This document shows, piece after piece, positions 4,610 through 62,545 of a DNA stretch of 64,000 nt; position 1 is the stretch's first letter, and each line of letters begins with the position of its first letter. Under the pieces are notes generated by a model that was not told the DNA's origin, made no database searches, and was given only the letters and a program-made list of their open reading frames with translations. The DNA lies in NCBI GenBank assembly GCA_016927905.1, contig JAFGLW010000026.1, positions 43,586 to 107,585 of the forward strand. Direction: 5' to 3'. The DNA is from a candidate division CSSED10-310 bacterium. Lineage in GTDB: Bacteria > CSSED10-310 > JAFGJC01. A program made the position numbers and the translations under genes.

Positions 4610-6660
4610 CTCCGCGCCCGAGTCTTGGGTTTTCACTGAGACTCGTTGCGTTTTTCACGGGTTTAATTCTGGTCGTCACCGGTCATCTGATCCTGTTCAA
4701 TCCAGAACATTACGGTCACCGGCTGGACAGATTTCCGGGCCAGCTTGTGCGGGAATTCACGCGCTTCAGGCTGGACATCCTGCCTTATGGCGTTCTGCCG
4801 GGAATCATGCTGTTCTTTCTGGGAACCCTGCTCATGGCGGTTTTGCTGGCCGGGAGAAGCAGCCAAACCGGCGAATCCGCTTGTTCGATTCCACCCGTTC
4901 GATGCAATCCGTTGAGATGGACCGGATGGCTGGGTCTGGCCGTTGCCGTGGGATTCAGCCTTTGTGCCGCGGGGATGCTGGCCCGGGAATCCCCGCCGCC
5001 GGCAGCGGCCGTATTCTGGTTTTCATCGATGTGGATATGGTGCGGGTGGTTGTATTTCAGGGACCGGGACCGGGATACCCGCCCGGGATACCCGCTGTCG
5101 GGCCGGGAAACAGGTATTGTATTGATACTGATGCTGGTGAATCTGGCCTGGGTGTCTCACGACCTCTATGACTGGCGCTGGTCGGGCACTCCGGATGAAG
5201 CCCATTTCTTCATGACCGCCAGGGCATTCATGGAAGGAAGGCTGGATCGGTTCATCCTGTCGGAAAACGGCGTGTTCGGTTACCATCCGGTCCTGTCAAC
5301 CTGCTATCAGATCTTCTTCATGCGGCTCCCGGGGCCGGACGGGTACGGCTGGCGGCTCTCGTCGGCTTTTGCCCTGTCGGTTACTCTGCCGTTTATCTAT
5401 ATCCTGGGGCGCGAGTTATGGAATCGCCGGACCGGGATCCTGGCGGCAGTTATTTTCGGATGGACCAAGATCGCGGTCGGGTTTTCACATCTGGGGTACA
5501 ACAATGTTCAAGTCTATCCCGTACTGATTGGATCCCTGGCGCTGTTCGTTTGGGCATGCAGGCGGCGGAGTCTTACCGGATATTTTCTTTCCGGATGGAT
5601 TGCTGGAATCGGATTTTACACTTACTATGCCGCACGGCTCGCGCCCATCCTGACCATATTGCTGGGGTTGTGCCTGGGTGGATTACCTCTGATCCGCCGG
5701 GACCGGCAGCGAACGGCCGTTTTATTCCTGGGAATCATGCTGGCGGTCATGCCGCTTTTTCTTCATCCCGGAGATTTCCTGGCTCACATGCTGCAGCAGA
5801 CCGCCGTAACCGGTGGCGTCCAGATCACGCATGAGGACGTTTCGTATTATCTGGGAAGATATTTGAAGACGGGAGAGCATGGGACCCGGATAATGGATCA
5901 CTGGTTTCTGACATTCATTCACGGATTGTATTTCCGGTGGCCGCATCATTTTCAAACCCATCCCGTGGTCGATCCGATATCGTATTCACTCGCTTTCATC
6001 GGGTTATGGATCTGCCTGCTCGAGATGGCGCGAAACCGTCAGAACCGCTTTCTCGGCCTTTCGTTTCTGGTGACGTCTTTTGTGGTTGGAGCGATCTCAT
6101 CTCACGACCGCCCACCGTTAACCCGGCTGCTGGTTCTATCACCGTTTCTGGGACTGCTCGCCGCCGTTGCTCTCGAGCGCGTGCCGGGGGTATTTGCGAC
6201 ATCAAGGAAAACCGTCCGATCCCTGGCGGTTGCCGGTGTCGTTCTGATAACGGGATGCGTGGTCGCATGGAATGTCACGGCGATACACATCAGCCTGAAT
6301 CGGGACCATCACGGATATGGCGACGGCACTACCGGCGAATTGCTGCGGCAGTCCAGGCTGTTCCCGGAAACCACCCAAATCGTCTATCTCCAGCGTGAAG
6401 GGACCCACATGCAATGTGTGGACCTGATCATGGATGAATACGGATTTGGAAACAGGATGACGCTCTTCCGTCCTCCGGACAACCGGGCATTCAGACACCT
6501 GTCGAAAATACAGCCGCCTTTCGCCGTATTCCTGGATCTGGACAACCTGCAGGAATCAGTAAAATTTAAAATGCTGCTGAACAGCCGGTTTCCGCAGGGA
6601 AACTGGCGGCACACAGATCCCGGCAGACGATGGTCTCTGATATATTTCCATATTCCGTGA
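4588..6660 (+). CDS. GT-C fold glycosyltransferase, PMT/ArnT-like (GT39/GT83, PMT_2-type). Start is uncertain (ATG 4588; alternative ATG 5029)
   Basis: More than 10 TM helices. First extracytoplasmic loop has ..WVSHDLYDWRWSGTPDEAHFFMTARAFMEGR.. (DE-type motif typical of ArnT/PMT). The track ORF start at 4246 lies inside the previous gene in another frame. Confidence 0.7.
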   Translation: MVASGGLTPRPSLGFSLRLVAFFTGLILVVTGHLILFNPEHYGHRLDRFPGQLVREFTRFRLDILPYGVLPGIMLFFLGTLLMAVLLAGRSSQTGESACSIPPVRCNPLRWTGWLGLAVAVGFSLCAAGMLARESPPPAAAVFWFSSMWIWCGWLYFRDRDRDTRPGYPLSGRETGIVLILMLVNLAWVSHDLYDWRWSGTPDEAHFFMTARAFMEGRLDRFILSENGVFGYHPVLSTCYQIFFMRLPGPDGYGWRLSSAFALSVTLPFIYILGRELWNRRTGILAAVIFGWTKIAVGFSHLGYNNVQVYPVLIGSLALFVWACRRRSLTGYFLSGWIAGIGFYTYYAARLAPILTILLGLCLGGLPLIRRDRQRTAVLFLGIMLAVMPLFLHPGDFLAHMLQQTAVTGGVQITHEDVSYYLGRYLKTGEHGTRIMDHWFLTFIHGLYFRWPHHFQTHPVVDPISYSLAFIGLWICLLEMARNRQNRFLGLSFLVTSFVVGAISSHDRPPLTRLLVLSPFLGLLAAVALERVPGVFATSRKTVRSLAVAGVVLITGCVVAWNVTAIHISLNRDHHGYGDGTTGELLRQSRLFPETTQIVYLQREGTHMQCVDLIMDEYGFGNRMTLFRPPDNRAFRHLSKIQPPFAVFLDLDNLQESVKFKMLLNSRFPQGNWRHTDPGRRWSLIYFHIP

Positions 6661-15042: not shown

Positions 15043-17256
15043 ATGAGTCGATGGTTCAAGGTTGCGTTCTTGGTTTTTATCGCGTGTCCGTGCCTGCTTT
15101 CGGCAGCGGATCCGGAGCGGGTGTTTAGGTGCGGAACGGCGGAGATTACGCTTGAGGTTCCGACGCAGGAGCAGTGGCGGGCGATCCGTGAGGTTCGGGA
15201 ACGGGACCGGTCCCTTCCGGAATACAATGTCGGCGACACCCGGATATTCTGGGTATGGGACCTGTCAGTCATGCCCCCGGTAGACATCCAGATCTCCGCA
15301 ACGTGCCGGGCCAAGGGTGACCGGGGCTATGTCTGGGTGTCGGACACCGAATGGGGAACGGCGGTAGACCAGACGGATGTGGACGGGGTGTTCACTGCCT
15401 GGGAAATCGCCACGCCGCCGGAGTCCATCGACCCGACCCGGGGAATCTGCCAGATCGCCGAAACGGTGTTCGGACCCGTGCCGGACGAACTGGACAACGA
15501 TCCCAGGGTATATGTTTTCTTTTACGATATCGGTTCGTACCACGGCTACACATTCGACGGATTCTGGAATGTGTACGACCAGATGACGGATGCGGAAGCC
15601 CAGATGTACGGCAGGCATTCAAATGAATGCGAGATCGTCTATCTGGACTGCAATCCGTCCGATCCGGACGACCCGTATATGTTGGGAGTGCTGGCGCATG
15701 AGTTTCAGCATCTGATCCACTGGGGTGCCGATGTGGATGAAGTCACCTGGGTCAACGAAGCCTGCTCCCAGCTTTCCTGGTTCGTCTGCGGGTTCGGCAC
15801 AGACGGCGCCGAAAATGCTTTTGCCAACAACCCGAACAACAACCTGGTTTCCTGGGATCAGACCAGCGGGGATTACGGCCAGGTGATGCTGTTTTCATTG
15901 TATCTGTATGAGCAGTTCGGCGGCGCCGGATCGATTCTGGAGATCGTGGCGAATCCGGGTAACGGGTTCAGTGGAATCGGGGCGGCCCTGACCGGTCTCG
16001 GGTACCCCTGGGATGCCGAACAGGTGTTCAACGAGTGGGTGGCAGCCAATTTCCTGGATGATCCATCCATCGACCGGGGTCAATACGGGTACGTGCTGTT
16101 CGATCCGCCGCCTTTCAAGATCCAGCAGACATTCACGGTTTTTCCAACGGGACTTCAGTCGGCTTCCGTAGATGAATGGGCGACACGGTATTACCGTTGC
16201 ACCGGCGGCCAGGTACAGTGGAACCTGGATGTGGATCCCGGGGCGGAACCGGTCAGTCCGTTCCTGGCGGCAACCGATTCGGGGGATGCCTTGCGGGTGA
16301 TTCCGCTGGACGCGACCGAAAATGTCATCCAGGCCCGGATCACCGCGACGGCCGATGCAACCGCGGATATCATCCTGGCCAATCACGATTCCGCGGCGGC
16401 GCCCGTGACCGTTCCGTTTGAGATGCGGGACGAAACCGCGGACGATGTAACGCCGCCGTTTGTCCGGGAAGCTTCACCGTGGGGCGTTTGCGGGCCGACG
16501 GCTTATGCGGAGTTCCGGATCCGTGACGAGACCGGAATCATAGACGCTGAAACACTGGCGCTGCTGGTGGACGGACAGCCGCCGTCGAATGAACCGGTGA
16601 TGGAACCGAAGCCGGACGGCGACCTGTTCGTGATGCTGAGTCTTTCGGAGGTTCCAATGGACCAGGTGGTCGACATCGAGGTGCGGGTCAGCGACACAGC
16701 CGGCAATGTCATGACGCCGTTTCACCTGGTTTTCATGATGACCGGGTCCCCGCAGCCGACCGCCACACCATCCGGACCGACCGCCACACCATCCGAACCG
16801 ACCGCCACACCATCCGAACCGACCGCCACACCATCCGAACCGACCGCCACACCATCCGAACCGACCGCCACGCCGGTCCCGCCGACTCCAACTCCCGGGT
16901 GCGACACACTGGGCGTGACGCTCTGGATGACGTCGGATTATTTCACTCCGGGCGATCCCTGTGCATGCACGGTGACCGCGTGCAATCCCGGATCGGAACA
17001 TTATCCGGATTTGCCGCTTTTTGTGATTCTGGACGTTTACGGGCTGTATTTCTTCGCGCCGTCGTTCGGGGAGTTCGACTACTTTGAGATCGACCTGGAT
17101 CCGGGCGATGTGGAAATCGGGGTTCTGCCGGAATTCGCCTGGCCGGAAGGCGCCGGCACAGCATCCGGCATTCTCTGGTACGCCGCCATGACCGACCCGG
17201 GGATCACGCAGCTCTTCGGGGAAATGGACACCTGGGAGTTTGGCTGGGGCAATTAG
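15043..17256 (+). CDS. secreted zinc metallopeptidase (gluzincin-like HEFQH..E) with Pro/Thr-rich linker and a conserved ~115-aa C-terminal domain
   Basis: Signal peptide MSRWFKVAFLVFIACPCLLSA. HEFQHLIHWGADVDEVTWVNE zinc site. (PTATPSE)n linker. The C-terminal domain is shared with the genes at 21536 and 60527. Confidence 0.8.
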   Translation: MSRWFKVAFLVFIACPCLLSAADPERVFRCGTAEITLEVPTQEQWRAIREVRERDRSLPEYNVGDTRIFWVWDLSVMPPVDIQISATCRAKGDRGYVWVSDTEWGTAVDQTDVDGVFTAWEIATPPESIDPTRGICQIAETVFGPVPDELDNDPRVYVFFYDIGSYHGYTFDGFWNVYDQMTDAEAQMYGRHSNECEIVYLDCNPSDPDDPYMLGVLAHEFQHLIHWGADVDEVTWVNEACSQLSWFVCGFGTDGAENAFANNPNNNLVSWDQTSGDYGQVMLFSLYLYEQFGGAGSILEIVANPGNGFSGIGAALTGLGYPWDAEQVFNEWVAANFLDDPSIDRGQYGYVLFDPPPFKIQQTFTVFPTGLQSASVDEWATRYYRCTGGQVQWNLDVDPGAEPVSPFLAATDSGDALRVIPLDATENVIQARITATADATADIILANHDSAAAPVTVPFEMRDETADDVTPPFVREASPWGVCGPTAYAEFRIRDETGIIDAETLALLVDGQPPSNEPVMEPKPDGDLFVMLSLSEVPMDQVVDIEVRVSDTAGNVMTPFHLVFMMTGSPQPTATPSGPTATPSEPTATPSEPTATPSEPTATPSEPTATPVPPTPTPGCDTLGVTLWMTSDYFTPGDPCACTVTACNPGSEHYPDLPLFVILDVYGLYFFAPSFGEFDYFEIDLDPGDVEIGVLPEFAWPEGAGTASGILWYAAMTDPGITQLFGEMDTWEFGWGN
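16756..16876 (+). repeat. tandem 21-bp coding repeat (ccgaccgccacaccatccgaa, ~5.7 copies) encoding (PTATPSE)n linker
   Basis: Direct inspection: five near-identical 21-nt units, in frame. Confidence 0.9.
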
Positions 17257-18612: not shown

Positions 18613-19182
18613 ACGCCTCCTCCTCATTTTGGATCTCTCCTCCAGCTTCACGCCATAAACCTCCGATATCTCCCACAATTTTACCACATATCGGCCAGCA
18701 AGAGAAAACCGTTGGGGTAGAAACCGAGCACATCGGCACGAAATGTGCCGGTCCGGCCACTCGTGATCGATGCTGATCCGGACCGTCCGGACCGTTTTTG
18801 ACACCAACTCAAGGGTAAAGTTGGCGCAACCGCGCCGCTTTTTCACCCGAACGTACTCGCCGTCGTCTTTTTCGATGCGGAAGGCATCTCCGGGAAGCTG
18901 AGCTCGGAACGCATCCCGGATGACAGTGGTACGCGGTTTTCACTGGTGCCTTTAAACAATTTCCACGACAACGGTGATCGGTTCACCGCCGTTCTGGCTG
19001 ACTTTGAAGACGATCTGCCCGTCGGATTTCGCGCCCCTCGCTGCACTGGATCCGGTATTTGTTCCCAAAGCAGGCTCTGACGGGCAGAGTCAAATTGATC
19101 AGTGCAAGAGCCAGGGTGGCGGTGGCAAAGTATTGAAATTATTTTATGCGCACAGAATCGCTCCTTCAGTTCCGGTTCCCGT

Positions 19183-19500
19183 TCAAACCACTTTCTTTTT
19201 AGTCCAGAACGGCCGCCAGTAGACGGGTTTGGAGAAGCATGTCCAGGCCCATTTCATGATGTCCACCATGTAGAACGCCGTCCACAGCGCCCAGAGAATC
19301 ATCGCCAGCCGGTAGAACAGCACGTGGATGGAAATCACTCCCGCCCCCGGATACTCCGGTCCGCTCGCGTCCTGATACCACCTCAGCATGCCCGCGTACG
19401 ATCCGTTTCCGGTGATGCTCATGTCCGGGCGGCCCAGCAGTCCCTGGCCGACGGCGACGATCAGGGAGATCAGGGCGATGCCGGAGAACAAATGGAGGAA
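19183..19500 (-). pseudogene. 3' fragment of a membrane-protein gene, apparently truncated by the adjacent IS remnant
   Basis: Hydrophobic C-terminal segment (..ILWALWTAFYMVDIMKWAWTCFSKPVYWRPFWTKKKVV*). The frame continues into the transposase remnant without a credible start. Confidence 0.3.
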
Positions 19501-19524
19501 ATAGGATCAGCCCAGCGACAATCC

Positions 19525-19776
19525 CCCAATGATTATGATCTTTCCGCAACGATCAGAAAATGGAGGGAAAGAAAAGCATGTCGCTTTGAGATGCCGTTCC
19601 TGCCCCCATATAGTCCGGAACTGAATCCTGTTGAGCGTGTTTGGAAAATGACAAGGAGGAAAGCAACGCATAACAAATACTTCGATTCACTCCAGGAGGT
19701 GTCTTCAGCGGTGGAATCCACATTTAAAACGTGGCGATATGCAAATGATGTTCTAAAAAGATTGTGCGCAATTTAA
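19525..19776 (+). mobile_element. IS630-family (DDE_3) transposase C-terminal remnant (pseudogene)
   Basis: ..RKWRERKACRFEMPFLPPYSPELNPVERVWKMTRRKATHNKYFDSLQEVSSAVESTFKTWR matches the conserved IS630/Tc1 C-terminal block (LPPYSP-LNPIE-W). No N-terminal HTH or DDE portion is present. Confidence 0.65.
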
Positions 19777-21535: not shown

Positions 21536-24500
21536 ATGGAGGTACTCATGAAAGCATTGAAATCAGGCGGATATTTTATGAATTTATTCGGTATGGTTCT
21601 TTGTGTTGCGGCAATGCCCGTAATGGTTCAGGCGGCTGAATACCATGTGGACATACCCATTTCGGGACATGCAACTGGCGTGAATTCAGATGGTTCCCAC
21701 TCGGTCACACTCGACGACTTCGGATATCTGAACATTCCCGGAAAACCGAAACTGCCCTCCCGGATATTCGCGGTAGCGCTGCCGCCGGGAGCGGTTGTGC
21801 GGTCTGTTGAAGCGCTGCCCGGTGCGGAGATTGTTCTGCCGGGAGAATACCGGATCGAACCGGTGCCGGTGTACCGGGTCATCGGATCGGAAGATCCCGA
21901 TCTGTATGCCGAGGATCTGGCCGGTTACCAGGCAAATTACAATTCTGTTTACTCCGCGGATACACCTTACCCGGAATCCATGATTGAGTTTCTGGGGATG
22001 GCGGGCATGCGGAAATACAACCTGGCGGAGATCCGGGTGACACCGTTCCAATACCGTCCCGTATCCGGAACATTGGGTTATTTCCCGGAATTCCGGGTGG
22101 CGATCCGATATGAAATTCCGGACGCGGAGCCAGTCGGGATGCTGATCGACCATCAGCCCCGGATGGAGCGGCTGGCCCGTGAATTCATTTTGAATTATGA
22201 AGACGCTCAGAAATGGTATCCCGTCGACCGGACCGAGCGGGGTCTTCACGAGTTCGTAGTAATCACAACAGCGTCGCTGGAAGGTGCGGTGAGCAACCTG
22301 CTGACCTGGGAGATCACCAAGGGCAGGACCGTTCAGGTTGCCACGGTGGAGTGGATCGACACGAATTATTCCGGCCGGGATCTGGCGGCCAAAATGCGCG
22401 CGTTTCTGCTGGAAAAATATCCTTCCGCCGAGTGGGGGATCGAAGATGTCCTGCTGGTGGGTCATCACTCCGATGTGCCGATGCGGGAAGTATACCAGGA
22501 TCAGGGTTACGGCAGACCGGATACCGATTTTTATTTTGCCGAGCTGTCCCATCCCGACAACGTGAACTGGGATAACGACAACGACGGGCGGTACTGGGAA
22601 AGCGGCGACAATGCGGATTATTATGCCGAGATCAATGTCGGCCGGATTCCATGGAGCGATTACAATACGGTTGCCAGTATTTGTGCCAAATCCGTTGCAT
22701 ACGAACAGAATGACGATCCCGGTTTCAAGAAGAGCATCCTGCTTCTGGGCAGTTTTTTCTGGGCGGACACGGACAATGCAGTATTGATGGAAGCCAAGGT
22801 GAATCAATCCTGGATGTCGGACTGGAACATTTACAGGATGTATGAGAAAAATGCGACCGCATATTCGAGTTATCCCTGTGATCTGGAGATCCAGCACATC
22901 AACGTCATGTCGGTATGGCCCAACGGCCAGTATGCATTCGTCAACTGGGCCGGTCACGGTTCCTATCATGCCAGCCATATGATGGGGTACGGTTCCGAAG
23001 CGTTCATCGATTCATCCGATTGTCCCAGCCTGAACGACAACTACCCGGCCATCATTTTTGCCGATGCCTGTTCCAACAGTGACACCGATTACACCAATAT
23101 CGGCGCCAGCATGCTTCAGCGGGGCGCCGTCGGATTTGTCGGCGCTACCAAGGTGGCTTACGGCTGCCAGGGCTGGAGCAGTCCGAACGACGGCTCCAGT
23201 CAATCGCTCGACTATTATTTCTCAACCGGTGTCACCTCCACGGATTATTCCCAGGGAGCTTCTCATGTGCGGGGATTGCTCACCGTGCATCAGATCGGCG
23301 GCTGGTATTACGACAAGTATGAAATCGCCGAGTTCAATCTGTGGGGCAACCCGGACCTGGGAATGGGAGACTGCATTTCGGGTGACGGCATGATTTCTCT
23401 GGACCGCACCGCATACGCGCCGGGAATGGATGCCACGGTGAGGGTGATGGATCTGGATCTGAACCTGAACGGGGGAGTGATCGATGAAACGCAGGTGGAT
23501 ATCACCACGTTTTTGGGTGACGCGGAAACGCTCCAGTTGTTCGAAACCGGTTTTGCAACGGGTGTGTTCGACGGATCCATTCCGATTGTGGAGGGATCGC
23601 CGGTCAGCGGGAACGGCGTGCTCGAGGTGGTTCACAATGATGGATTTACGGCCACATACATTGACGAGGACGACGGTCACGGCGGCTTCAACGTTCCGAA
23701 ACAGACCATGGCATCCATCGATGCGATGCCGCCTCATATAACCGGTGTCGAAGTATCGGAAATATCCGGCAGTCTCGTGACGATTCACTGGATTACCGAT
23801 GAACCGGCGGACAGCCGGGTGTATTACGGGGAAGGAACACCCACGGAACAAGTCGTGATTTCTTCACTGACCACCGGTCACACCATCACCATTTCCGATC
23901 TCATTTCGTGCCGGTACTACGTGTTTTATGTTGAATCCTGTGATGCTGCGGGCAATTCGGCAGTGGACGACAACGGCGGATCGAACTACTGGTTCGGCAC
24001 TGAACTCGGTGGCGGATTCGATGTATCGGAAAATCCGAACTACAGCAACCGGTATGACAACGTGACCTATTACTACAATGACGGGTCCGGCACGGGAGCC
24101 ATCAGCGAGGACGGTACGGTCACCGGCTGGAAAGTACGGGCGACCAACGGCGGATCCGGTCTGGGAATGCGGATCATCCGGCCTTTGGGAGGCAGCAGTT
24201 ACGCTTATGTCGGCGGTTCATCGCTGGTGACCGTCACTGAGGGAATCAACGATTTTCCGGATTCGGTGAATATCCCGGTTCAGAGCGGGGATATCATCGC
24301 TTTGTATTACAATTCCAGCGGCAATGCGGAAGTGGGTTTGAACGGTTCCGGGGATTACCTGCTGTATTATGAAGGGGATGTCGCCAATGCCGGAACTTTC
24401 ACAACCAGCGGGAATTCATCCAAAAACGGTTATCAGCTGGTGATGATTTACGGGGACTGCGATATGGGCCCGACGCCGACTCCCGGAGCACCGACGCATA

Positions 24501-25168
24501 CGCCCGGTCCTGCAACACCCACGCCGGCACCGACCAGCACCGGAATTCCGACGCATACTCCAATGCCGACCTATACTTCCGCTCCCCCCACATCCACACC
24601 CACGGCGCCTCCGGGCGAACCGACCTACACCCCCATCCCGACCCAAACCCCCATTCCGACCTATACTTCCGCTCCCCCCACACCCACACCCACGGCGCTT
24701 CCGGGCGAACCGACCTACACGCCCATTCCGACCTATACTCCGGCTCCGACCTATACCCCGGCTCCGACCTTCACGGTTCCCCCACAGGACACGCCGACCC
24801 CCGAGCCCACATCCGGAGGCGATGTTCTGATCGATTTGAAGCTGAATCTGACGACGTTCACCACCGGCGATCCGTTCCGGCTCAGCTGTGAATGTTACAA
24901 TCCGTCCGTACCCATCACACTGGAGCAGTTTATCGTTCTGGATGTTTACGGAAGTTATTTCTTCTGGCCGGGCTGGCAGCCGGGCATGGATTACCGGCTT
25001 GTGACATTGAGCACCGGCTGGCAGACGCCCGAAACCCTTCTCGAATTCATCTGGCCGGAAGGAAATTTCGGAACGGCGTACGGCCTGTATTTCTGGGGTG
25101 CCCTGTTGATGCCCGGCAGCCATAAACTGGTCGGAAGTTACGACGTGGTCGAGTTTGGGTACCGGTAA
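21536..25168 (+). CDS. secreted gingipain-like cysteine peptidase (C25 family) with Fn3 domain, Pro/Thr-rich linker and conserved ~115-aa C-terminal domain
   Basis: Signal peptide MNLFGMVLCVAAMPVMVQA. Catalytic-type blocks NWAGHGSYHAS (His) and IIFADACSNSD (Cys). Fn3 (VTIHWITDEP..YYVFYVES). Linker PTPTPGAPTHTPG...; C-terminal domain homologous to those at 16897-17253 and 62184-62542. Confidence 0.75.
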   Translation: MEVLMKALKSGGYFMNLFGMVLCVAAMPVMVQAAEYHVDIPISGHATGVNSDGSHSVTLDDFGYLNIPGKPKLPSRIFAVALPPGAVVRSVEALPGAEIVLPGEYRIEPVPVYRVIGSEDPDLYAEDLAGYQANYNSVYSADTPYPESMIEFLGMAGMRKYNLAEIRVTPFQYRPVSGTLGYFPEFRVAIRYEIPDAEPVGMLIDHQPRMERLAREFILNYEDAQKWYPVDRTERGLHEFVVITTASLEGAVSNLLTWEITKGRTVQVATVEWIDTNYSGRDLAAKMRAFLLEKYPSAEWGIEDVLLVGHHSDVPMREVYQDQGYGRPDTDFYFAELSHPDNVNWDNDNDGRYWESGDNADYYAEINVGRIPWSDYNTVASICAKSVAYEQNDDPGFKKSILLLGSFFWADTDNAVLMEAKVNQSWMSDWNIYRMYEKNATAYSSYPCDLEIQHINVMSVWPNGQYAFVNWAGHGSYHASHMMGYGSEAFIDSSDCPSLNDNYPAIIFADACSNSDTDYTNIGASMLQRGAVGFVGATKVAYGCQGWSSPNDGSSQSLDYYFSTGVTSTDYSQGASHVRGLLTVHQIGGWYYDKYEIAEFNLWGNPDLGMGDCISGDGMISLDRTAYAPGMDATVRVMDLDLNLNGGVIDETQVDITTFLGDAETLQLFETGFATGVFDGSIPIVEGSPVSGNGVLEVVHNDGFTATYIDEDDGHGGFNVPKQTMASIDAMPPHITGVEVSEISGSLVTIHWITDEPADSRVYYGEGTPTEQVVISSLTTGHTITISDLISCRYYVFYVESCDAAGNSAVDDNGGSNYWFGTELGGGFDVSENPNYSNRYDNVTYYYNDGSGTGAISEDGTVTGWKVRATNGGSGLGMRIIRPLGGSSYAYVGGSSLVTVTEGINDFPDSVNIPVQSGDIIALYYNSSGNAEVGLNGSGDYLLYYEGDVANAGTFTTSGNSSKNGYQLVMIYGDCDMGPTPTPGAPTHTPGPATPTPAPTSTGIPTHTPMPTYTSAPPTSTPTAPPGEPTYTPIPTQTPIPTYTSAPPTPTPTALPGEPTYTPIPTYTPAPTYTPAPTFTVPPQDTPTPEPTSGGDVLIDLKLNLTTFTTGDPFRLSCECYNPSVPITLEQFIVLDVYGSYFFWPGWQPGMDYRLVTLSTGWQTPETLLEFIWPEGNFGTAYGLYFWGALLMPGSHKLVGSYDVVEFGYR
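24563..24730 (+). repeat. two tandem 84-bp coding repeats within the Pro/Thr/Tyr-rich linker
   Basis: ccgacctatacttccgctcccccca... occurs twice in tandem (PTYTSAPPT[S/P]TPTA[P/L]PGEPTYTPIPT..). Confidence 0.8.
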
Positions 25169-25211: not shown

Positions 25212-26675
25212 ATGAAGATTCTCCTGGTCGTTCCGCCCGGCGGGTATTATGCAGAGAGATGGTCCGGAGGCGTGCTGATGCCGCCTCTGGGCCTTGGTTA
25301 TATCGCCGCGTCGTCGGAACGGCTGCCCCATGAAATTCAGATTCTGGATGCCCATGTCCAGAAACTCGGGAAAAACGAAATTGTCCGGCGGGTTGAGGCT
25401 TATCGGCCGGACCTGGCCGGATTGACCTTCACGACTGAAAACCGGTTTGAAGCGTTCGATACCGCGCAACTCATCAAGGATGCGGTTCCGCACTGCCATC
25501 TGACTGCCGGCGGTCCCCATGTTTCACTGGCCGGGGAAGACACCCTGTCGGGCATTCCGGCGTTCGATTCCGTGGTGATCGGTGAAGGTGAAAAAACGTT
25601 CACCGAACTGATCGAGGCTCTGGATCAGGGTTCAGGCCGGTATCTGAACCGTGTGAACGGCATCGCCTACCGGACTTTCCAGGGCGACATCGAACGGACA
25701 CCTCCCAGAAAGCGGATTGAAAATCTGGACGAAATTCCCTTTCCGGCCCGCCATCTGTTTCCTTCTTTCGAAACCTACAACTTCAAATTCGATGTTCCCG
25801 GCAGAGGAATCCGGCGTTTTGCCAATCTCATGACCAGCCGGGGGTGTCCCTGCAACTGTAATTTCTGCGCCACACCCAAGGTCTGGGGACGAACCGTCCG
25901 CATGCGGTCCCCGGAAAACATCCTCAAGGAAATCGATCTTCTGGTGGAAACCCAGAATATCGAAGCGCTCTGGTTTTTTGATGACACCTTCAATACCTCT
26001 CCCAACCGGGTCCGGAAACTGTGCGAACTGCTGAAATCCCGCCGGTATGATCTGCCCTGGTTTTGTGAAGTCCGCGTGGATCTGATGTCCAAAGATCTCC
26101 TGGCGGTCATGAAAGACGCCGGTTGCTACACAATCGGGTTCGGTGTCGAATCGGGATCCCAGCGGATTCTGGATGAAGTGATCCGGAAAAACCTAAAACT
26201 TGAAAACGTCTACAAGCTTTATGAATGGTGCCGGGAACTGGAAGTGGTCGCCAATCCGTTTTTCATCATCAGTCACCCCACGGAAACTTATGAGGAAGCC
26301 CGTCAGACCATGGATATGATCCGGGAATTCAAGGACGGAGCCCGAATATCGATGGCGTTCCTGCATGTTTATCCCGGAACGGACCTGGAAATCACCGCTC
26401 AGAAGAACGGAACGCTGCCACCGGATTTCAGGTGGTATCAATCCGGCAGGAAAGACATCAGAACGCTGGCAAGCGCTCAAGGTAACGTCCCGATTTTCCA
26501 GGACCGATTGACCTGGAACCAGATCTCCGATCTGCTCTTTGAATGGGCTGCGATGCAGAATTATCCGGTGTGGCGCAGAATCCCGAAAGTATTGAAATCG
26601 ATCCGGACATGGGATGATTTCAAGCGGTACGGAATCATGGGCGTTCGATATCTCAATCGTCTGGTGAGGAAATAA
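25212..26675 (+). CDS. B12-binding domain radical SAM protein (class B)
   Basis: N-terminal cobalamin-binding Rossmann region (MKILLVVPPG..), then SRGCPCNCNFC (CxxxCxxC). Confidence 0.8.
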   Translation: MKILLVVPPGGYYAERWSGGVLMPPLGLGYIAASSERLPHEIQILDAHVQKLGKNEIVRRVEAYRPDLAGLTFTTENRFEAFDTAQLIKDAVPHCHLTAGGPHVSLAGEDTLSGIPAFDSVVIGEGEKTFTELIEALDQGSGRYLNRVNGIAYRTFQGDIERTPPRKRIENLDEIPFPARHLFPSFETYNFKFDVPGRGIRRFANLMTSRGCPCNCNFCATPKVWGRTVRMRSPENILKEIDLLVETQNIEALWFFDDTFNTSPNRVRKLCELLKSRRYDLPWFCEVRVDLMSKDLLAVMKDAGCYTIGFGVESGSQRILDEVIRKNLKLENVYKLYEWCRELEVVANPFFIISHPTETYEEARQTMDMIREFKDGARISMAFLHVYPGTDLEITAQKNGTLPPDFRWYQSGRKDIRTLASAQGNVPIFQDRLTWNQISDLLFEWAAMQNYPVWRRIPKVLKSIRTWDDFKRYGIMGVRYLNRLVRK

Positions 26676-31550: not shown

Positions 31551-34500
31551 ATGGCGGCACATCGGGTTTTCCATTTTTTTCTCCTTTTCTCAATCATGAT
31601 TATTTTCGGGCTGAGCGGGATATCGGCCCAGGGTCCCGGATCAGCCGCCCCCCGGAATTCGCAACTGGATCGGGCCATGTTCATGGCGCAGGTGGACAGG
31701 CAGGACCTGAGGATCGACTGGTATCATACCGATTTTGATGTGGTCGTGGGCAGGAACACGACCGTGATGGATGTCCTCGAAAATCCCTTTTATGCCCCTT
31801 CTTTCGTGCAGGTGTACGCCGCCCGTTTAAACGGGTCACTCGGATCGGTGACACCTCATGATTTGTTCCTGACCGCCCTGGATATATCGGGGGCATCGCT
31901 GGATCGTTTCCATGGGTCCGGCGCTTCCCAGCGCAGCCTGATGGAAGTCTTTGAAGATATGCAGGTGCGGTTCAACCGTGTCCCCCTGTCACCCGGAACC
32001 CGCCAGGTATTGATCAAGCAGATCAGGAACCTGCCGGAAGGCCTGGAGGAATCTCTGGTTATTCTTTCCGAGGCGTTGATGGAAGCGGCGACACTGCGCC
32101 AGGAAGCTCTCGCCAGGTTGTCGGCGAGCGAATACCGGATGATTGTTGACAATCCCATGGAGTATTTTTTCGATGACCGGAATCCAGACCGGATCAATTT
32201 CTTTCTGGCTGAAACCAAGAGTCAGATAACCGTCCTCAGGGTAATGCAGAAAATCGATCTGACCAAAATATTCATGGGCACGAAGATTCTGACTGAAGCG
32301 ATCGAAATAACCCGTCCCAAATTGCAGTGGGTGCATAAGCGTACGATCGCCGTTCAGAACGCAGAAATCCTGCTGGAATTTGATTCCCCTCTCGGACTCA
32401 TTCTGGTGGGAGGTCCGGGGGTCAACCGGCATGACCGGGATGCGGCTCTGCTGCTTGATCTGGATGGTTCGGATGTTTACAGCAACAATGCGGGCGGGAG
32501 TCTTCATGTGCGCGGCGGAATCGCCTGTCTGATCGACATGGGCGGCAACGATCTGTACACCGATCTCCGGGCTGGTGTTCAGGGCAGCGGGTTGCTGGGA
32601 ATCGGTATCCTGGTGGATTTTCATGGCGAAGACACCTATGTGGGTGGTGATTGGAGCCAGGGCGCTGCGCTTGGGGGAGCCGGGATCGTTTACGATGAAA
32701 AGGGATCGGATAAATACCGTGCGGGCGTTTTGTCACAGGGAAGCGGAACATTCGGGATCGGCATGAATATCGACGTGGATGGCCACGATTTCTTTATCGG
32801 CGATTCATTTTGCCAGGGTTTCGGCTCCACTCTGGGTTTCGGTGGATTGATCAATATATGGGGGCGGGACAATTATATTGCCGGTACCGCCGGAACGGAT
32901 CGTTTTTCCAGAATGGACGGGATCGCTCAGGGTTCTGCAGCCGGGTGCCGGGCACAAAACAGGGATCGGGATCTGGGTGTCTGGGGCGGGATCGGAATGC
33001 TGGTGGATGCTCATGGAAACGACACATATCGTTCGAAATATAACAGTCAGGGATCGGGATTTTTCCTGTCGCTGGGAGTTCTGGTTGACAACGAAGGGAA
33101 TGACTTTTATGACTGCACCGGGAATTCCCAGGGATATGGAGCGGCATTCGCTGCAGGTTTGCTGATCGACCAGGAGGGGGAGGATCTTTATACCGGAATC
33201 CGGCTCGTCCAGAGCGCTGTTGAGGGGGATGCCCTGGGGATGCTTCTGGATTACAGCGGAGACGACATTTATCGGCATACCGGGTCCTGCGGTCAGGCAT
33301 GCGGGTTCCCTCCGGGGGGGTTTGCGCTGTTTATTGATTACCGGGGCACGGACCGGTATGAGGGTGGCGGCAGGGCTCAGGGATATGTCCTGCCTCCGGC
33401 GAATCCGCTCCACTGGCCGTTCGCCTGCCTGATCGATCACGAGGGACGGGACATCTATTTTTCCCCGGGTTCACTGGAGTTGTTCCACGAGAACGACACT
33501 GCCTGGCAGAACAGCCGGGGAGGTGTCGGTATTGATACGGTAATCAATCCGCCGATGTATTTCGCCGGCCAGCAGGGATCTTCCCGTATTCAGCATTATC
33601 AGATGGATGCGGTCAAAACGCTGGAGACGCTGGAGCCGAACAAATTATCGCGATTGGGTTCCCTGGATGCCTATACGCGCTTTTTTGCCCAGTCGGACAT
33701 TGTGAACCGCGGCGTGGAGATATTGCCGGAGATCGCCGGAGCGGTTGATCTGGGTCATTCGGAATTCAGGCGGACCCTTGAAGATGCAATCCGGTTGATT
33801 CTGGATGACCCGGCAGCCAGAAACCACCTGCCGGCACTTCAGCCGATGCTGTCCAGCATCGATCCGGAAACCAAGCATTTTGTGCTGGAACTGTATGCCC
33901 GATACGAATTTAAAGGGGCTTCCCATTTGCTTCAAAACCTTCTGGACGACACATCGCCCCGGGTCCGCAGCTCAGCCGCCCGCGTTCTGGGTATCACCCG
34001 GGATACACAGTCCGTGCCGGAATTGCTGAAAATGGCGGGTCATGATGTGAATCCGGCATGCCGGCGGGAAGCCATCCGGGCGATCGCTTCCATCGAGCCG
34101 GAGAATCACCGGGCGGCGTTCCGGGAATCCCTCCGGGATCCCGACCCGACCGTCAGGATAACGGCCATGGAAGCCGTCGGAGAGATTCAGGACCGGGAAT
34201 CGGTGGGAATTCTTCAGTTGATGGCCGCCGCTGAAGATGAATATATCCGGCGGTCGGCGGGGAAAGCTTTGATACGGATCGGAGATAAAAGCGGGTTTCC
34301 GGTATTGTTCAAATCGATTAGTTTCGGTTCGGAAGACAACCAGGATCCTTATGCTCCGGGAAGCGTTCCAGCTTTTCTGATGGAATATACGGGAGTTAAT
34401 TTCGGCTTTGATGTCGATGAATGGGAAAGCTGGTGGGCGGAGCAGGAATTCCGTTTGGATCTGGGATTGCAGTGTGCCGCCCGTGAGGAATATGATCGGT

Positions 34501-34874
34501 TTATAAAGCGCGTTCACAAGCTGGATGCACCGGAAACAATCCGCATGATCGGGAATCTGCGCAATTCCTGTCCTGGTTACACCGGTTACGACCGCTATCT
34601 TGCGGAACCAATCCACAAAAAAGCCGTGCAACTGCTGGCGACAGGGAAAATCGGGGTGCTCAATTCGGCACGGATTCTGTCCGAATATGCAGTGGAAATG
34701 GATCCATCCCGTCCGGAATATTATCTCACTCGGGCGAAAATAGTGATGAAGGCGGGTGATATGGGTGAGGCGGAGAAGATATTGAACGGATGCCGGGACA
34801 GGTTCCGCCATTCAAAAGAATTCATGGAGGATTCCGGACGCCTGCTGGCGGAGATTGCCAGTGCCGGGCAGTAA
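31551..34874 (+). CDS. large secreted protein: Gly/Asp-rich ~22-aa beta-helix-like repeats (central), PBS-lyase HEAT repeats and TPR (C-terminal)
   Basis: Signal peptide FFLLFSIMIIFGLSGISAQG. Repeats of D-x-x-G-x-D-x-Y..QG-x-G..G-x-G-x-L-x-D. HEAT-like ..DTSPRVRSSAARVLGI..DPDPTVRITAMEAVGEI.. Confidence 0.7.
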   Translation: MAAHRVFHFFLLFSIMIIFGLSGISAQGPGSAAPRNSQLDRAMFMAQVDRQDLRIDWYHTDFDVVVGRNTTVMDVLENPFYAPSFVQVYAARLNGSLGSVTPHDLFLTALDISGASLDRFHGSGASQRSLMEVFEDMQVRFNRVPLSPGTRQVLIKQIRNLPEGLEESLVILSEALMEAATLRQEALARLSASEYRMIVDNPMEYFFDDRNPDRINFFLAETKSQITVLRVMQKIDLTKIFMGTKILTEAIEITRPKLQWVHKRTIAVQNAEILLEFDSPLGLILVGGPGVNRHDRDAALLLDLDGSDVYSNNAGGSLHVRGGIACLIDMGGNDLYTDLRAGVQGSGLLGIGILVDFHGEDTYVGGDWSQGAALGGAGIVYDEKGSDKYRAGVLSQGSGTFGIGMNIDVDGHDFFIGDSFCQGFGSTLGFGGLINIWGRDNYIAGTAGTDRFSRMDGIAQGSAAGCRAQNRDRDLGVWGGIGMLVDAHGNDTYRSKYNSQGSGFFLSLGVLVDNEGNDFYDCTGNSQGYGAAFAAGLLIDQEGEDLYTGIRLVQSAVEGDALGMLLDYSGDDIYRHTGSCGQACGFPPGGFALFIDYRGTDRYEGGGRAQGYVLPPANPLHWPFACLIDHEGRDIYFSPGSLELFHENDTAWQNSRGGVGIDTVINPPMYFAGQQGSSRIQHYQMDAVKTLETLEPNKLSRLGSLDAYTRFFAQSDIVNRGVEILPEIAGAVDLGHSEFRRTLEDAIRLILDDPAARNHLPALQPMLSSIDPETKHFVLELYARYEFKGASHLLQNLLDDTSPRVRSSAARVLGITRDTQSVPELLKMAGHDVNPACRREAIRAIASIEPENHRAAFRESLRDPDPTVRITAMEAVGEIQDRESVGILQLMAAAEDEYIRRSAGKALIRIGDKSGFPVLFKSISFGSEDNQDPYAPGSVPAFLMEYTGVNFGFDVDEWESWWAEQEFRLDLGLQCAAREEYDRFIKRVHKLDAPETIRMIGNLRNSCPGYTGYDRYLAEPIHKKAVQLLATGKIGVLNSARILSEYAVEMDPSRPEYYLTRAKIVMKAGDMGEAEKILNGCRDRFRHSKEFMEDSGRLLAEIASAGQ

Positions 34875-34878
34875 TCCA

Positions 34879-36408
34879 ATGAAACGGGTTGCCACACTGC
34901 TTGGAATCCTGCTGATCGCGGGTGGTGCGAGCGCTTCGGTCCTGATCTCACCCGGAGAGGATGCCCGTTTCGGGCGATGGGATGATATCCCGGCATTTAC
35001 CTGGAACGATGTTGCGCAATCCGGAGAATCCTACTGGATTGAATTCTCTCTGGATCCGGATTTCGAAACGGATGTGGCCCGGATTCAGGTTGACGGCACG
35101 GTTTTCGATCTGGGAAAGTATGTTTCAACAGATGACTGGATGCATTTGGCTTTCAGGGCTTTCTGGCGGGTTGCCTGGGAAAGCAGCATTTCCCAGGCTA
35201 GGATGTTCACGAAAACGCCCATCGTCCCACCGAGAGTCCATTTCCCGTTTGACGCCCGGCATGGTCCGGGAGATCCGGCGCCCCGGATTGAATGGGAGGC
35301 GGTATTCGGATCGACGGGGTACAGGATGGAGTTTGCTTTCGATCCGGAATTCTCAGAGGGGTACCGGGTGGATATTGAAAGCACATGGATCGATCTGGCG
35401 CAGGAAATACCCGCCGATGACTGGATTGGAAGCTCCTTTTTGATTTATTTCCGGGTGTGGGCGATGGATCCGATCGGCCTGGACGGTCCCTATTATCAGG
35501 TTTTCAGGCTGTCCAAATCGTCGCTGCCTCCGCCGCCTGTGGGACAGCCGTCCGGTGATTATTTCAGCGCCCGGACCGATCTTCCGGTTTTCATCTGGCA
35601 GGCTTATCACGGTTTTAAAGGCTATCAGGTACAAATCGCCAGAGACGGCCGGTGGGACCGGGATCCGCTGGAGTATGAGACCACAGGGAACCACCTGGAT
35701 CTGTCGGATGTCATGGCGCGGGAAGAGTGGGAGATGATGTGGGGTTACCATGCCTGGCGGGTGAGTGCGGTTGAAGCATCCGGAGCGGTGACTCCCTGGT
35801 CGGACGATACCGAATTTTACAAATGCGGCGGTAAGGTCCTTACCGCACTGGGTGATTCCATTACAACCGGCGGGGTTTGCGTGCCGGAATCCTGGGTTGA
35901 CGGGTTTCAGTACCTGCTGGAACAAAGCGCAGGTGATGTGGTGATGTTCAATGCATCCGTCGGCGGAACAAAATCAAAATGGGGAGCGGAAGTGATCGGA
36001 GCGGTTCTTCAGTATACATTGCCTGAATTCATATTGCTGCTTTTCGGGGCGAACGATTCGGTTGATCCGGGCAACTGCGATCCGCCCTACGGGTGCGATG
36101 TCGCAGGGCATCTTTGGGACATGGTATTCATCGCCCGGGAATTCGGAACCATTCCGATCATCAGCACCGTGTTGCCGGTCAATCCGGAAGGTGCCCATTA
36201 CTATCATCAATTCAGGGTCGACATGTATAATGATGAGATCCGGTATATGGCTTCACAGAACAATGTCCACCTGATCGATCTGAATGAAGCGATGTGGGCG
36301 CACGGGAATATTCCCGAGCTGTTCTGCGACTGGGGACATCCAAACGAAACCGGCAACGCTCTGATCGCTCACGGATATTATTCAGCGGTATCCGAGTATT
36401 GGTGGTAA
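34879..36408 (+). CDS. secreted SGNH/GDSL hydrolase with three ~85-aa N-terminal repeat domains
   Basis: Signal peptide MKRVATLLGILLIAGGASA. GDSITTGG, GANDS and DWGHPNETGN (DxxH) blocks at the C-terminus. Three homologous N-terminal repeats (..YWIEFSLDPDFE.., ..YRMEFAFDPEFS.., ..YQVQIARDGRWD..). Confidence 0.7.
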   Translation: MKRVATLLGILLIAGGASASVLISPGEDARFGRWDDIPAFTWNDVAQSGESYWIEFSLDPDFETDVARIQVDGTVFDLGKYVSTDDWMHLAFRAFWRVAWESSISQARMFTKTPIVPPRVHFPFDARHGPGDPAPRIEWEAVFGSTGYRMEFAFDPEFSEGYRVDIESTWIDLAQEIPADDWIGSSFLIYFRVWAMDPIGLDGPYYQVFRLSKSSLPPPPVGQPSGDYFSARTDLPVFIWQAYHGFKGYQVQIARDGRWDRDPLEYETTGNHLDLSDVMAREEWEMMWGYHAWRVSAVEASGAVTPWSDDTEFYKCGGKVLTALGDSITTGGVCVPESWVDGFQYLLEQSAGDVVMFNASVGGTKSKWGAEVIGAVLQYTLPEFILLLFGANDSVDPGNCDPPYGCDVAGHLWDMVFIAREFGTIPIISTVLPVNPEGAHYYHQFRVDMYNDEIRYMASQNNVHLIDLNEAMWAHGNIPELFCDWGHPNETGNALIAHGYYSAVSEYWW

Positions 36409-60526: not shown

Positions 60527-62545
60527 TTGCCGTTCAGGATCCCGGGAGGATGGCTGAAGATGATTGAAAAACTGTGGCGTATTCTGCTGATCGGATCATT
60601 TTTCGTCGCGGGAGCACTGGCGGACGAATATTATCAATGTCCGTATTCCGGCCCGACGGACGATGTCGAGCTGGCATATTCCGCGGAACATTATGCCCTG
60701 TCTCTCGAATTGACGTTCCCTGCGGAATCCCAGGAGGGGGCTCTGTTCGGGAGTGTGACGATTGACGGGATCAGTCTTTCTGACGATCTCGACCGGATCG
60801 CTCTCGATTTTCTGGATGTTGAAACGGTTGAGATTTTCACGATTCACCTGGACGGATCCACCGCCGATCACCAATTCGAAAACCATGAAATCGCAATAAC
60901 GGTACCGGTCCCCAAAATGCAGGGGGAGCTGTTTCAAGTGATTGTGGAGTACCGTATTGAGGGTTTGAAGCATTTCCAGTTCCGGCCCCGTGGGGAGGAA
61001 CGGTATGCGTTCAACTCCATGGTGGCCAATTCGCGATGGTTTCCCTGTCTTCATGATCCGCGTGACAAGGCAACATACGAGTTCACGATCACGGTTCCGA
61101 GCGGGAAAACGGCGGTTGCCAACGGTTTGCTCCAGTCCATAATCGATAACGGCGATCGTACCGAGACATACCGATGGGTGGAAAGCGATCCCATGGCCAC
61201 ATACCTCGCAACGATCAATGTGGCGGATTACGAAGTTTATCGGCATGACTACAACGGCATGCCGGTCGTTTATTACATCGTTGGGGAAAAAATGGCGGCC
61301 GCCCAGTATGATTTCGCACACGATCATGACATCCTGGATTTCTTTACGTCGGCATTCGGCCCCTATCCGTTCGACAAGCTGGGGCTGGCGGATGTGCCGC
61401 TGGGTGGAGCCATGGAAAACCAGGACATGATCAGTTTCGGGACGAATCTCATCACCGGGGACCGCACATACGAAGATACGTTTGCGCACGAGATATCCCA
61501 TATGTGGTGGGGTGATTCCGTCACGCTGACCGGCTGCTTCGATGTCTGGCTGAACGAAGGATTTGCGAGTTACTGTGAGGCGTTGTGGGAAGAGCACTTT
61601 TACGGCCAGGAAGCATACGATGCGGTGATGGCGGCGCATCGGGATAAATATTTCAGTGAAGATGAAACACACCGGTATTCCATTTACGATCCGGAGGTCG
61701 TTTGGAGTGCAACGACGTATAAGAAAGCAGCCTGGGTGCTCCACATGCTGCGGTGGGTATTGGGAGAAAGCGATTTCTGGGCGTTGCTGCCGGATTATTA
61801 CGACCGGTTCAAATACGGGCATGCCACAACCGATGATTTTCAGGCGGTTTGTGAAGATCATTATGGATCATCCCTGGAATGGTTCTTCCAGGAATGGATC
61901 TACGATCAGGGATATCCGGAGTTTGAACTGGCCTACCGGATCGTCAAAGATGGGGAATATTTGCAGATGCATGTAAAACAAGTGCAACAGGATGCTCCGG
62001 CAGTTTTTGTCATGCCGGTTGAAATCGAATGGACCGGAACGGGTGGCCAGACATGTTCCGAGATTGTGTGGATTGATGAATCAGAGGAATTGTTCCGGTT
62101 CGAGATTGTCGAAGATCTGAATACGGTTGCATTTGATCCCCGTGAAAAAATATTGAAAAAGGTTGAATGGACTGCCTGGACGGCTGAAACCGGAGTCAAA
62201 CTGTGGATGCCGGGAACCATGTTTCATGCCGGCGAGCCATGTGCGTGCAGCGCAACCGTGCTGAATGCCGAAATCGAAACGCTGGAGAATTATCCGCTGT
62301 TCGTCATTCTGGATGTATTCGGGCAATATTATTTCGCTCCTTCATTCAGCGATTTCGACAACTTCCTTTCCTGCCATCCCACCTTTCCCATCGGGTACAC
62401 CGCGGTTTCGGTGCTTCCGGAGTTTGCCTGGCCGGCAGGGGCCGGAACGGTTGCCGGGGTGCGCTGGTATGCCGGCCTGACCAACCCCGGAATGACGGCG
62501 CTTTGCGGTACGATGGATATCTGGGAGTTTGGATGGGACAGTTGA
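60527..62545 (+). CDS. secreted M1-family aminopeptidase (GAMEN + HEISH..E) carrying the shared ~115-aa C-terminal domain
   Basis: Signal peptide. GGAMENQ exopeptidase motif. HEISHMWWGD-(x18)-WLNEGFASY zinc site. C-terminus homologous to 16897-17253 and 24816-25165. Confidence 0.8.
   Translation: MPFRIPGGWLKMIEKLWRILLIGSFFVAGALADEYYQCPYSGPTDDVELAYSAEHYALSLELTFPAESQEGALFGSVTIDGISLSDDLDRIALDFLDVETVEIFTIHLDGSTADHQFENHEIAITVPVPKMQGELFQVIVEYRIEGLKHFQFRPRGEERYAFNSMVANSRWFPCLHDPRDKATYEFTITVPSGKTAVANGLLQSIIDNGDRTETYRWVESDPMATYLATINVADYEVYRHDYNGMPVVYYIVGEKMAAAQYDFAHDHDILDFFTSAFGPYPFDKLGLADVPLGGAMENQDMISFGTNLITGDRTYEDTFAHEISHMWWGDSVTLTGCFDVWLNEGFASYCEALWEEHFYGQEAYDAVMAAHRDKYFSEDETHRYSIYDPEVVWSATTYKKAAWVLHMLRWVLGESDFWALLPDYYDRFKYGHATTDDFQAVCEDHYGSSLEWFFQEWIYDQGYPEFELAYRIVKDGEYLQMHVKQVQQDAPAVFVMPVEIEWTGTGGQTCSEIVWIDESEELFRFEIVEDLNTVAFDPREKILKKVEWTAWTAETGVKLWMPGTMFHAGEPCACSATVLNAEIETLENYPLFVILDVFGQYYFAPSFSDFDNFLSCHPTFPIGYTAVSVLPEFAWPAGAGTVAGVRWYAGLTNPGMTALCGTMDIWEFGWDS

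Follow-up and report, generated by a model that had tools for sequence, protein, structure and literature searches.

Shared C-terminal tags have led to new machinery in several cases, namely, LPXTG and sortase, PEP-CTERM and exosortase, the domain of the type IX secretion system (T9SS) and PorU/V, and dockerin and cohesin. The T9SS type-A domain (TIGR04183 / PF18962 Por_Secre_tail) is a beta-sandwich of about 80–115 amino acids (aa) that lies at the extreme C-terminus of unrelated hydrolases and adhesins with signal peptides. Its terminal position, single copy, diverse cargo, lineage restriction and beta-sandwich are the hallmarks of T9SS domains, and tens of copies occur per genome. The type I dockerin (PF00404) is a small C-terminal module, usually located behind a Pro/Thr linker, on many secreted enzymes; dockerins are occasionally internal, too. 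Here, we examined a domain that resembles both. It forms the C-terminus of a gingipain-like C25 peptidase encoded in a 64,000-nucleotide stretch of DNA (the window) from a candidate division CSSED10-310 bacterium (contig JAFGLW010000026.1). The domain shares the above properties of the T9SS type-A domain; however, there is no detectable sequence or profile homology between the two, and the present domain is longer, has eight strands, is acidic, is occasionally internal and ends in FGW-x-(E/D), whereas the T9SS domain ends in a basic tail. Unlike the type I dockerin, which has a duplicated Ca-binding helical motif, it is all-beta. A modular C-terminal tag on secreted proteins is a familiar kind of feature; the domain family itself is uncatalogued, having no match in Pfam, NCBIfam or the PDB sequences and no close structural relative among the solved structures. 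Our interpretation, to which we assign a probability of roughly 0.55, is that the domain would be a lineage-specific, interchangeable C-terminal localisation tag binding one common cell-surface partner. Its role would most likely be comparable to that of a dockerin or a T9SS C-terminal domain, while by sequence it is a member of neither family.

The window contains three copies of the domain. The copies and the parts of the C25 carrier gene are as follows.

16756..16871, + strand: Pro/Thr linker of the copy-1 protein, a 21-nt tandem repeat x 5.5 with 98% matches (TRF) and PTATPSE units
16903..17253, + strand: copy 1, the four-Cys version of subfamily A, closing a 737-aa HExxH metalloprotease-like open reading frame (ORF), 15043..17256
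21536..25168, + strand: C25 peptidase gene, 1210 aa, secreted, gingipain family (Pfam, two orthologues, invariant H474/C512)
21536..21637, + strand: predicted Sec signal peptide, MEVLMKALKSGGYFMNLFGMVLCVAAMPVMVQA followed by AE, read directly from the translation, with the cleavage site between them inferred
aa 61-226 of the C25 protein, + strand: Propeptide_C25 (Pfam E 7e-8)
22253..23359, + strand: Peptidase_C25 catalytic domain, aa 240-608, with the His474/Cys512 dyad (Pfam E 7e-34)
24491..24814, + strand: Pro/Thr-rich linker, aa 986-1093 (about 107 aa), seen in the translation and partly encoded by a tandem repeat (24545-24756)
24815..25165, + strand: copy 2, C-terminal beta-sandwich domain, aa 1094-1210, 117 aa, divergent subfamily B, ending ..VEFGYR
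62192..62542, + strand: copy 3, of subfamily A but lacking both the outer Cys pair and a Pro/Thr linker, at the end of an M1 aminopeptidase ORF (probable start 60560, stop 62545)

The carrier of copy 2 is a member of peptidase family C25, as had been claimed in an earlier reading of the letters (hereafter, the sequence-only reading): Peptidase_C25 scored 118 bits (cut-off 23) and the propeptide 32 bits (cut-off 22), and His474 and Cys512 were invariant across 121 aligned C25 sequences. Between the catalytic domain and the linker lie about 375 aa of middle domains. The carrier is similar to the gingipains of Porphyromonas gingivalis in the Propeptide_C25 and Peptidase_C25 core with the conserved His/Cys dyad, and in the non-catalytic C-terminal domains that precede a terminal tag. 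It differs from them in that it ends in the present domain, not in a T9SS domain, and in that it has a long Pro/Thr linker; in addition, no haemagglutinin/adhesin (cleaved-adhesin) domains were detected in it. All the strings quoted in the sequence-only reading (FIVLDVYGSYFFWPGW, LLEFIWPEGNFGTAYGLYFWGALLMPG, YDVVEFGYR with the stop codon, and SCECYNPS) were located within this ORF. The domain start given there, 24816, is one base out of frame, the in-frame domain being 24815-25165.

A tblastn search of the window with the C-terminal 124 aa of the C25 protein returned exactly three copies (16882-17253, 24794-25165 and 62192-62542), all at the ends of ORFs, and the hidden Markov model (HMM) of the family found the same three and none besides (E 1e-35 to 1e-58). 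Copy 2 matched copy 1 with 40% identity (E 1.5e-15 / 3e-14) and copy 3 with 34% identity (E 1.4e-11), while copies 1 and 3 matched each other with 53% identity (E 9e-37); copy 2 is indeed the most divergent of the three. Across the three copies, 33 columns are invariant. The adjoining Pro/Thr linkers are of low complexity and repeat-encoded, and one may suspect that the resemblance is a compositional or low-complexity artefact. This suspicion, which the sequence-only reading had itself raised, is refuted by the results, and we give it practically no weight: since the Smith-Waterman z-scores are 23.4, 22.6 and 52.0 (1000 shuffles) and the sequence entropy of the copies is 3.9–4.1 bits, the similarity is not compositional. 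The invariant columns, the E values of the family HMM, the more than 2,000 homologues and the predicted fold (described below) point in the same direction.

The copies are old. The codon-aligned nucleotide identity is 45–46% between copy 2 and copies 1 and 3, and 64% between copies 1 and 3; dS among the window copies is about 1.5, that is, saturated. The closest relatives of the three copies in other genomes show identities of 71%, 56% and 62%, as compared with 38%, 32% and 53% within the window; for copy 2, the nearest relatives are the cluster representative P0055 and the orthologue L001 (56%). Each copy is closer to relatives in other genomes, and therefore the paralogues predate the divergence of the sampled lineages. 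The proposal that they are anciently diverged modules rather than recent duplications was thus borne out. The alignment and dN/dS estimate suggested along with it had different outcomes: the alignment upholds the homology, while the ratio is meaningless, because dS is saturated (1.5–2.7) or undefined for the paralogue and orthologue pairs. Regional dN and identity were used in place of dN/dS as measures of constraint.

Two whole-protein orthologues of the C25 carrier exist in the metagenome-assembled genomes (MAGs) of CSSED10-310, L001 (JAFGJC) and L002 (JAFGMN); the window protein itself gave no record when looked up as an exact match among public assemblies. The catalytic domain is 69% identical to that of L001 and 70% to that of L002 (dN 0.25), the terminal domain 55% and 39% (dN 0.46–0.67), and the adjacent middle region 2 only 24% and 21% (dN 1.2–1.35); the linker, which varies in length, is not alignable. 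This dN gradient indicates purifying selection on the domain, relative to the neighbouring regions of the same protein, in agreement with the functional constraint assumed in the sequence-only reading. In copies 1 and 2, the Pro/Thr linker that precedes the domain is encoded by tandem repeats, the repeat in the C25 gene being a 90-nt unit x 2.4 with 86% matches (TRF). Since the linkers are repeat-encoded and their length differs among the C25 orthologues, they evolve by repeat expansion beside ancient domains. Such tandem repeats may also break metagenome assemblies, which could be one reason for the many truncated database matches.

The fold was predicted by AlphaFold2 as an eight-strand beta-sandwich, with a pLDDT (predicted local distance difference test) of 96.9 for copy 2 and 97.5 for copy 1; from these models, the domain is predicted with confidence to be a stand-alone, self-folding beta-sandwich of roughly 115 residues. 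No Pfam or NCBIfam model matched the domain on full proteins, or at E≤1 on 61 isolated domains, and a profile search of all PDB sequences gave a best E of 1.3. The Foldseek neighbours of the two models are weak, generic Ig-like sandwiches (E 4e-4 to 5e-3; template modelling (TM) scores 0.4–0.58). These include CARDB, the GH3 C-terminal FnIII-like domain, Spo0M/arrestin-like proteins, RhoGDI and the porphyran-binding carbohydrate-binding module (CBM) 8wae. They share the two-sheet topology with the present domain, but at 7–19% identity and a root-mean-square deviation of 4–7.6 Å none comes near family-level similarity, and they have no function in common. The most conserved loop motifs, APSF and WPxGxG, and both termini should lie at one pole of the sandwich, as judged from the strand order alone, which suggests a single binding face.

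The cysteines of the domain vary. In 194 sequences a Cys stands at column 18 as well as at column 45, while Cys at column 18 alone occurs in 2 (phi 0.69). In subfamily A, four Cys are common, and it is with these counts that the Cys at the linker/domain boundary covaries strongly with the Cys that precedes the conserved Asn-Pro; for the CxC pair, phi is 0.50. This covariation fits optional disulfide staples, and thus would place the domain outside the cytoplasm. The shifted Cys pair of copy 2 (SCECYNPS), to which the sequence-only reading had drawn attention, is literally present, but it is not conserved: the orthologues read RLTCSSSNP and LLQSECFNP at this site. We rejected it as a functional motif, also because 43 of 321 family members have no Cys at all.

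Subfamily B, represented by copy 2, has the pattern L.LN..F..GD.F.L ... YIVLDVYG.YFFWP.W ... EFGY. It is not specific to C25, since it was also found on M14, S8, beta-helix/DUF1565, BNR+CBM96 and PPC-containing proteins. It is conceivable that subfamilies A and B might address different destinations.

A profile search that covered 1.84 billion cluster representatives gave a family of 2,422 representatives at E≤1e-3, 2,041 at E≤1e-10 and 556 at E≤1e-30. Three features were found in the arrangement of its members. One is the terminal placement: the domain lies within 6 aa of the C-terminus in 141 of the 147 top representatives, and in 92% of 292 non-redundant domains the chain ends no more than 3 aa past the final FGWx motif, usually after one Glu or Asp. 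Another is that the domain occurs as a single copy (142 of the 147). The last is the sequence context: about 70% of the 147 passed a crude signal-peptide test, and in half of them Pro, Thr and Ser make up at least 50% of the 40 residues that precede the domain. Homologues of 109 aa that seemed to stand alone proved to be fragments of gene calls, produced by frameshifts in the passenger genes upstream; for example, P0050 begins within the last 4 nt of an M1-peptidase ORF, and P0028 comes after a broken PMP-repeat gene.

The genomic loci gave the same picture. When one genome per GTDB species was scanned, 108 matches could be confirmed, and 77 loci from 10 MAGs were kept; the match ends 0–9 codons upstream of the stop codon in 75 of the 77, in ORFs of 370–1500 aa. 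All the MAGs carrying a name belong to candidate division CSSED10-310, and as far as can be seen, the domain is confined to this one rare candidate phylum. In the DNA fetched, at least 33 distinct copies were counted in CALFER and at least 37 in CAYYMM. These two MAGs share the gene order of the window, in which the M1 peptidase with the domain is followed by a response regulator (54% and 51% identity), and syntenic orthologues of the copy-3 M1 protein in L074 and L076 are 54% identical to it. The phylum, which is also listed as 'Ca. Getofiota' (PMC11382960), has been reported to be sister to Acidobacteriota and not to the T9SS-bearing lineages (PMC8248873). In the literature, we found no mention of the domain, and for the phylum only genome announcements.

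The proteins that carry the domain are diverse. In Pfam and NCBIfam scans of 74 full-length representatives, the Pfam passengers were Beta_helix (9), Peptidase_S8 (5), Kelch (4), NosD (4), Chlam_PMP (4), FG-GAP (3), metallophosphatase (2), BNR (2), and one each of C25, PD40, sortilin and LTD; a TolB-like propeller was recognized by NCBIfam in addition. One small family member comes after a choice-of-anchor Q fragment. The window adds the M1, C25 and HExxH proteases, the last having a weak NCBIfam match (MXAN_6640_HExxH). The passengers are unrelated and of types that are typical of secreted and surface proteins. This repertoire is usual for general sorting or anchoring tags, and not for a substrate-specific binding module.

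The passengers bear on two alternatives. In the first, the domain would be a C-terminal propeptide or intramolecular chaperone of the PPC type, which aids folding or protease latency and is then removed. Bacterial peptidases with C-terminal beta-sandwich extensions that are cut off once the protein has been secreted are known (PF04151), and all three window carriers are peptidases with signal peptides. We regard this alternative as improbable, since many carriers are non-peptidases without any latency problem (Kelch, FG-GAP and PMP repeats, beta-helices), the domain does not match PPC (PF04151), one family member (L064) carries PPC in addition to the present domain, and a long flexible Pro/Thr linker is ill-suited to an inhibitor or a chaperone.

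In the second, the domain would be a CBM-like module that directs enzymes to an insoluble substrate or an extracellular polymer, and not to the producing cell. Classic CBM proteins are built in this way, with a C-terminal beta-sandwich behind a Pro/Thr linker, and internal placement, which the present domain shows occasionally, is common for CBMs. The best Foldseek match of the domain is the CBM 8wae (E 5e-4, TM 0.54), a Wzt carbohydrate-binding domain is also listed, and aromatic residues account for 17% of the domain as compared with 11% of the passengers. However, the similarity in structure is weak, and Ig-like domains that do not bind (GH3 FnIII, Spo0M, RhoGDI, CARDB) match just as well. 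Few of the passengers are glycoside hydrolases, most being peptidases, beta-helix or propeller proteins; one substrate-specific CBM is hard to square with five peptidase families, and near-absolute terminal, single-copy placement is unusual for CBMs. A binding module of this kind thus seems unlikely to us, although less so than a propeptide.

The strongest indirect argument for a localisation tag came from the C25 core. With the propeptide and catalytic region (aa 1-620) as the query, homologues of 54–61% identity were found in other phyla, those with a named source belonging to Planctomycetota/Phycisphaerae, Zixibacteria and Desulfobacteraceae. Among the best 120 of these homologues, a dockerin tail was the commonest module at the position in question (61; by a local HMM, and as PF00404 in the Pfam lists), 3 end in the canonical T9SS type-A domain (PF18962), and the others end in PKD, FG-GAP or other modules; the present domain was found in none of the 120. 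The same core thus carries different terminal modules in different lineages, and in CSSED10-310 this place is taken by the present domain. In the C25 peptidases, nature offers an instance of tags being swapped across phyla on one conserved gingipain-like core. The cross-phylum identity of the core (21536-23395) is unusually high, which hints at horizontal spread with local tag replacement.

How such a tag would act may be pictured as follows. The carriers would be exported by the Sec pathway via their N-terminal signal peptides, and the catalytic or adhesive passenger would be held on the flexible, repeat-encoded Pro/Thr linker. The terminal sandwich would then bind one common partner on or around the cell, which might be an envelope protein, a scaffold or a surface polymer, and this binding would keep dozens of different secreted enzymes at the cell surface. 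We infer the localisation, the common partner and the cell association of the carriers from the distribution and arrangement of the domain described above.

Several results weigh against this picture. No partner, receptor or processing enzyme was identified, and no secretion or sorting gene lies beside the carrier genes in the window and the neighbourhoods examined. The best structural match, although weak, is a CBM. With a mean net charge of −11, K 0.6% and R 1.4%, the domain is also strongly acidic, which argues against simple electrostatic binding to anionic envelope polymers. Moreover, about 4% of the members (P0169, P0183, P0192, P0084 and P0099) carry the domain internally, followed by a second Pro/Thr linker and then by an FGE-sulfatase-like domain (FxMGS...C...) or a beta-propeller; a free C-terminus is therefore not absolutely required. 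Such an embedded module bears on the choice between a binding module and a terminal signal.

The search for machinery among conserved neighbours gave only orthologous synteny and a radical S-adenosylmethionine (SAM) family, with no candidate partner. The 23 window ORFs scanned encode a B12-radical SAM protein, DUF5698/DUF2179, an acyltransferase, a sigma-54 activator, GDSL lipases, a sulfatase, molybdopterin enzymes, ProRS and a transposase fragment, and none of them is a secretion or sorting component. Cohesin and dockerin were also considered: no cohesin-like partner was identified among the conserved neighbours examined; no Pfam dockerin model matched the domain, and a local dockerin HMM was blank on the window and loci.

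A third alternative is that the domain is a true secretion signal, which a dedicated outer-membrane translocon would recognize, with cleavage or sortase-like attachment to follow; it would then be a divergent or independent counterpart of the T9SS domain, or the tag of an undiscovered pathway. The strict terminal placement in one copy, the dozens of cargo proteins per genome, the lineage restriction and the beta-sandwich all fit this view, and some homologous C25 peptidases have a T9SS domain at this very place. In addition, hhalign revealed a short common patch, W..SG(I/V)(Y/W)(F/Y), in the penultimate strand. This patch (W-x(3-6)-SG-(I/V/L)-(Y/W)-(F/Y); 15 columns, C25 aa ~1172-1188; WDSRRSSSGLYFYR vs WPEGNFGTAYGLYFWG) is, with P 0.12, not significant, and the hhalign probability against three bona fide T9SS domains was 0.5%. 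Neither TIGR04183, PF18962 nor FlgD_ig matched (E≤0.1 on full proteins; E≤1 on the 61 isolated domains), T9SS domain structures were absent from the top 50 Foldseek matches of either model, and no T9SS component (PorV, PorU, SprA/Sov or GldK-N) was found among the 23 window ORFs scanned. Narrow T9SS-domain and dockerin HMMs had no match in the roughly 760 kb of window and loci, where the present domain occurs 123 times, a comparison biased because the loci were chosen for containing the domain. The internal copies and the reported position of the phylum as sister to Acidobacteriota, not to T9SS-bearing lineages (PMC8248873), likewise speak against a secretion signal, as does the fact that the C25 peptidase of the window is not PorU. 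On balance, we consider a true secretion signal doubtful.

The identity of the C25 carrier as a PorU-like T9SS sortase with a special subfamily-B tag was ruled out on three counts: the NCBIfam model NF033707 (T9SS_sortase) gave 12.6 bits, far under its cut-off of 420; subfamily B also sits on other kinds of proteins, as listed above; and the C25 core is well conserved across phyla as ordinary cargo, with homologues that bear cargo-type tags.

A tentative extension of the localisation reading is that the domain would be the recognition tag of a CSSED10-310-specific sorting or surface-attachment pathway with an undescribed receptor, translocon or sortase, that is, an independent equivalent of the T9SS domain with PorU/V or of exosortase. 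We hold this to be possible, with odds well below even.

Whatever its mechanism, the family is large (more than 2,400 cluster representatives) and confidently folded, and is without a model in Pfam, NCBIfam or the PDB sequences; a Pfam or NCBIfam model can be built straight from the present alignments. In a phylum that is rare, uncultured and little studied, a large part of the predicted secretome bears the domain. The domain can serve as a simple marker, recognizable in the sequence, of the hydrolases that CSSED10-310 organisms export, and it provides a handle on the partner via phylogenetic profiling.

Some observations were made on the surroundings of the C25 gene. A B12-binding radical SAM gene (25212-26675) begins 44 nt downstream of it and is kept in L001 (3053-4525; 71% identity), and radical SAM paralogues of about 30% identity adjoin other carrier genes in L031, L038 and L042. 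This neighbourship is probably due to chance in radical-SAM-rich anaerobes. A promoter and terminator scan gave no signal above the shuffle expectation. A 235-aa antisense ORF (24416..25123, − strand), which is Arg/Gly/Cys-rich and lies over the linker and domain, was rejected as a gene and regarded as a shadow of the repeats that encode the Pro/Thr linker: since the + frame has thousands of homologues, the antisense ORF merely results from the GC-richness of the linker. Between the copy-1 and copy-2 genes, a DDE_3 transposase fragment (19102-19776), matching the C-terminal part of the Pfam model only, adjoins an AAA_14 ATPase gene and a small unannotated ORF; the fragment may be a mobile-element remnant. 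As for the Pro/Thr linkers, the region 4246-6660 encodes an 804-aa membrane protein with a PMT_2 domain (dolichyl-phosphate-mannose protein mannosyltransferase family), which is a candidate for O-glycosylating the linkers of exported proteins.

The acidity is not confined to the domain. Extreme acidity and a scarcity of Lys and Arg mark the exported proteins of this organism: net charges range from −69 to −89 in the three carriers, with K 0.5–2.6% and R 2.9–3.3%, and the ORFs 31551-34874 and 34855-36408 belong with them in this respect. The cytoplasmic proteins of the window are near neutral with R 7–10%, and the passengers average K 1.4% and R 3.3% family-wide. The acidic secretome might reflect the habitat; a more speculative idea is that it protects the proteins of the organism from its own Arg/Lys-specific gingipain-like proteases.

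Finally, an unusual arrangement was found in the family member P0080 (440 aa). This protein has a complete subfamily-B-like domain at its C-terminus, and near its N-terminus the profile matches it partially twice more, with positions 77-134 coming before positions 9-74, as if the domain had been circularly permuted or rearranged there.

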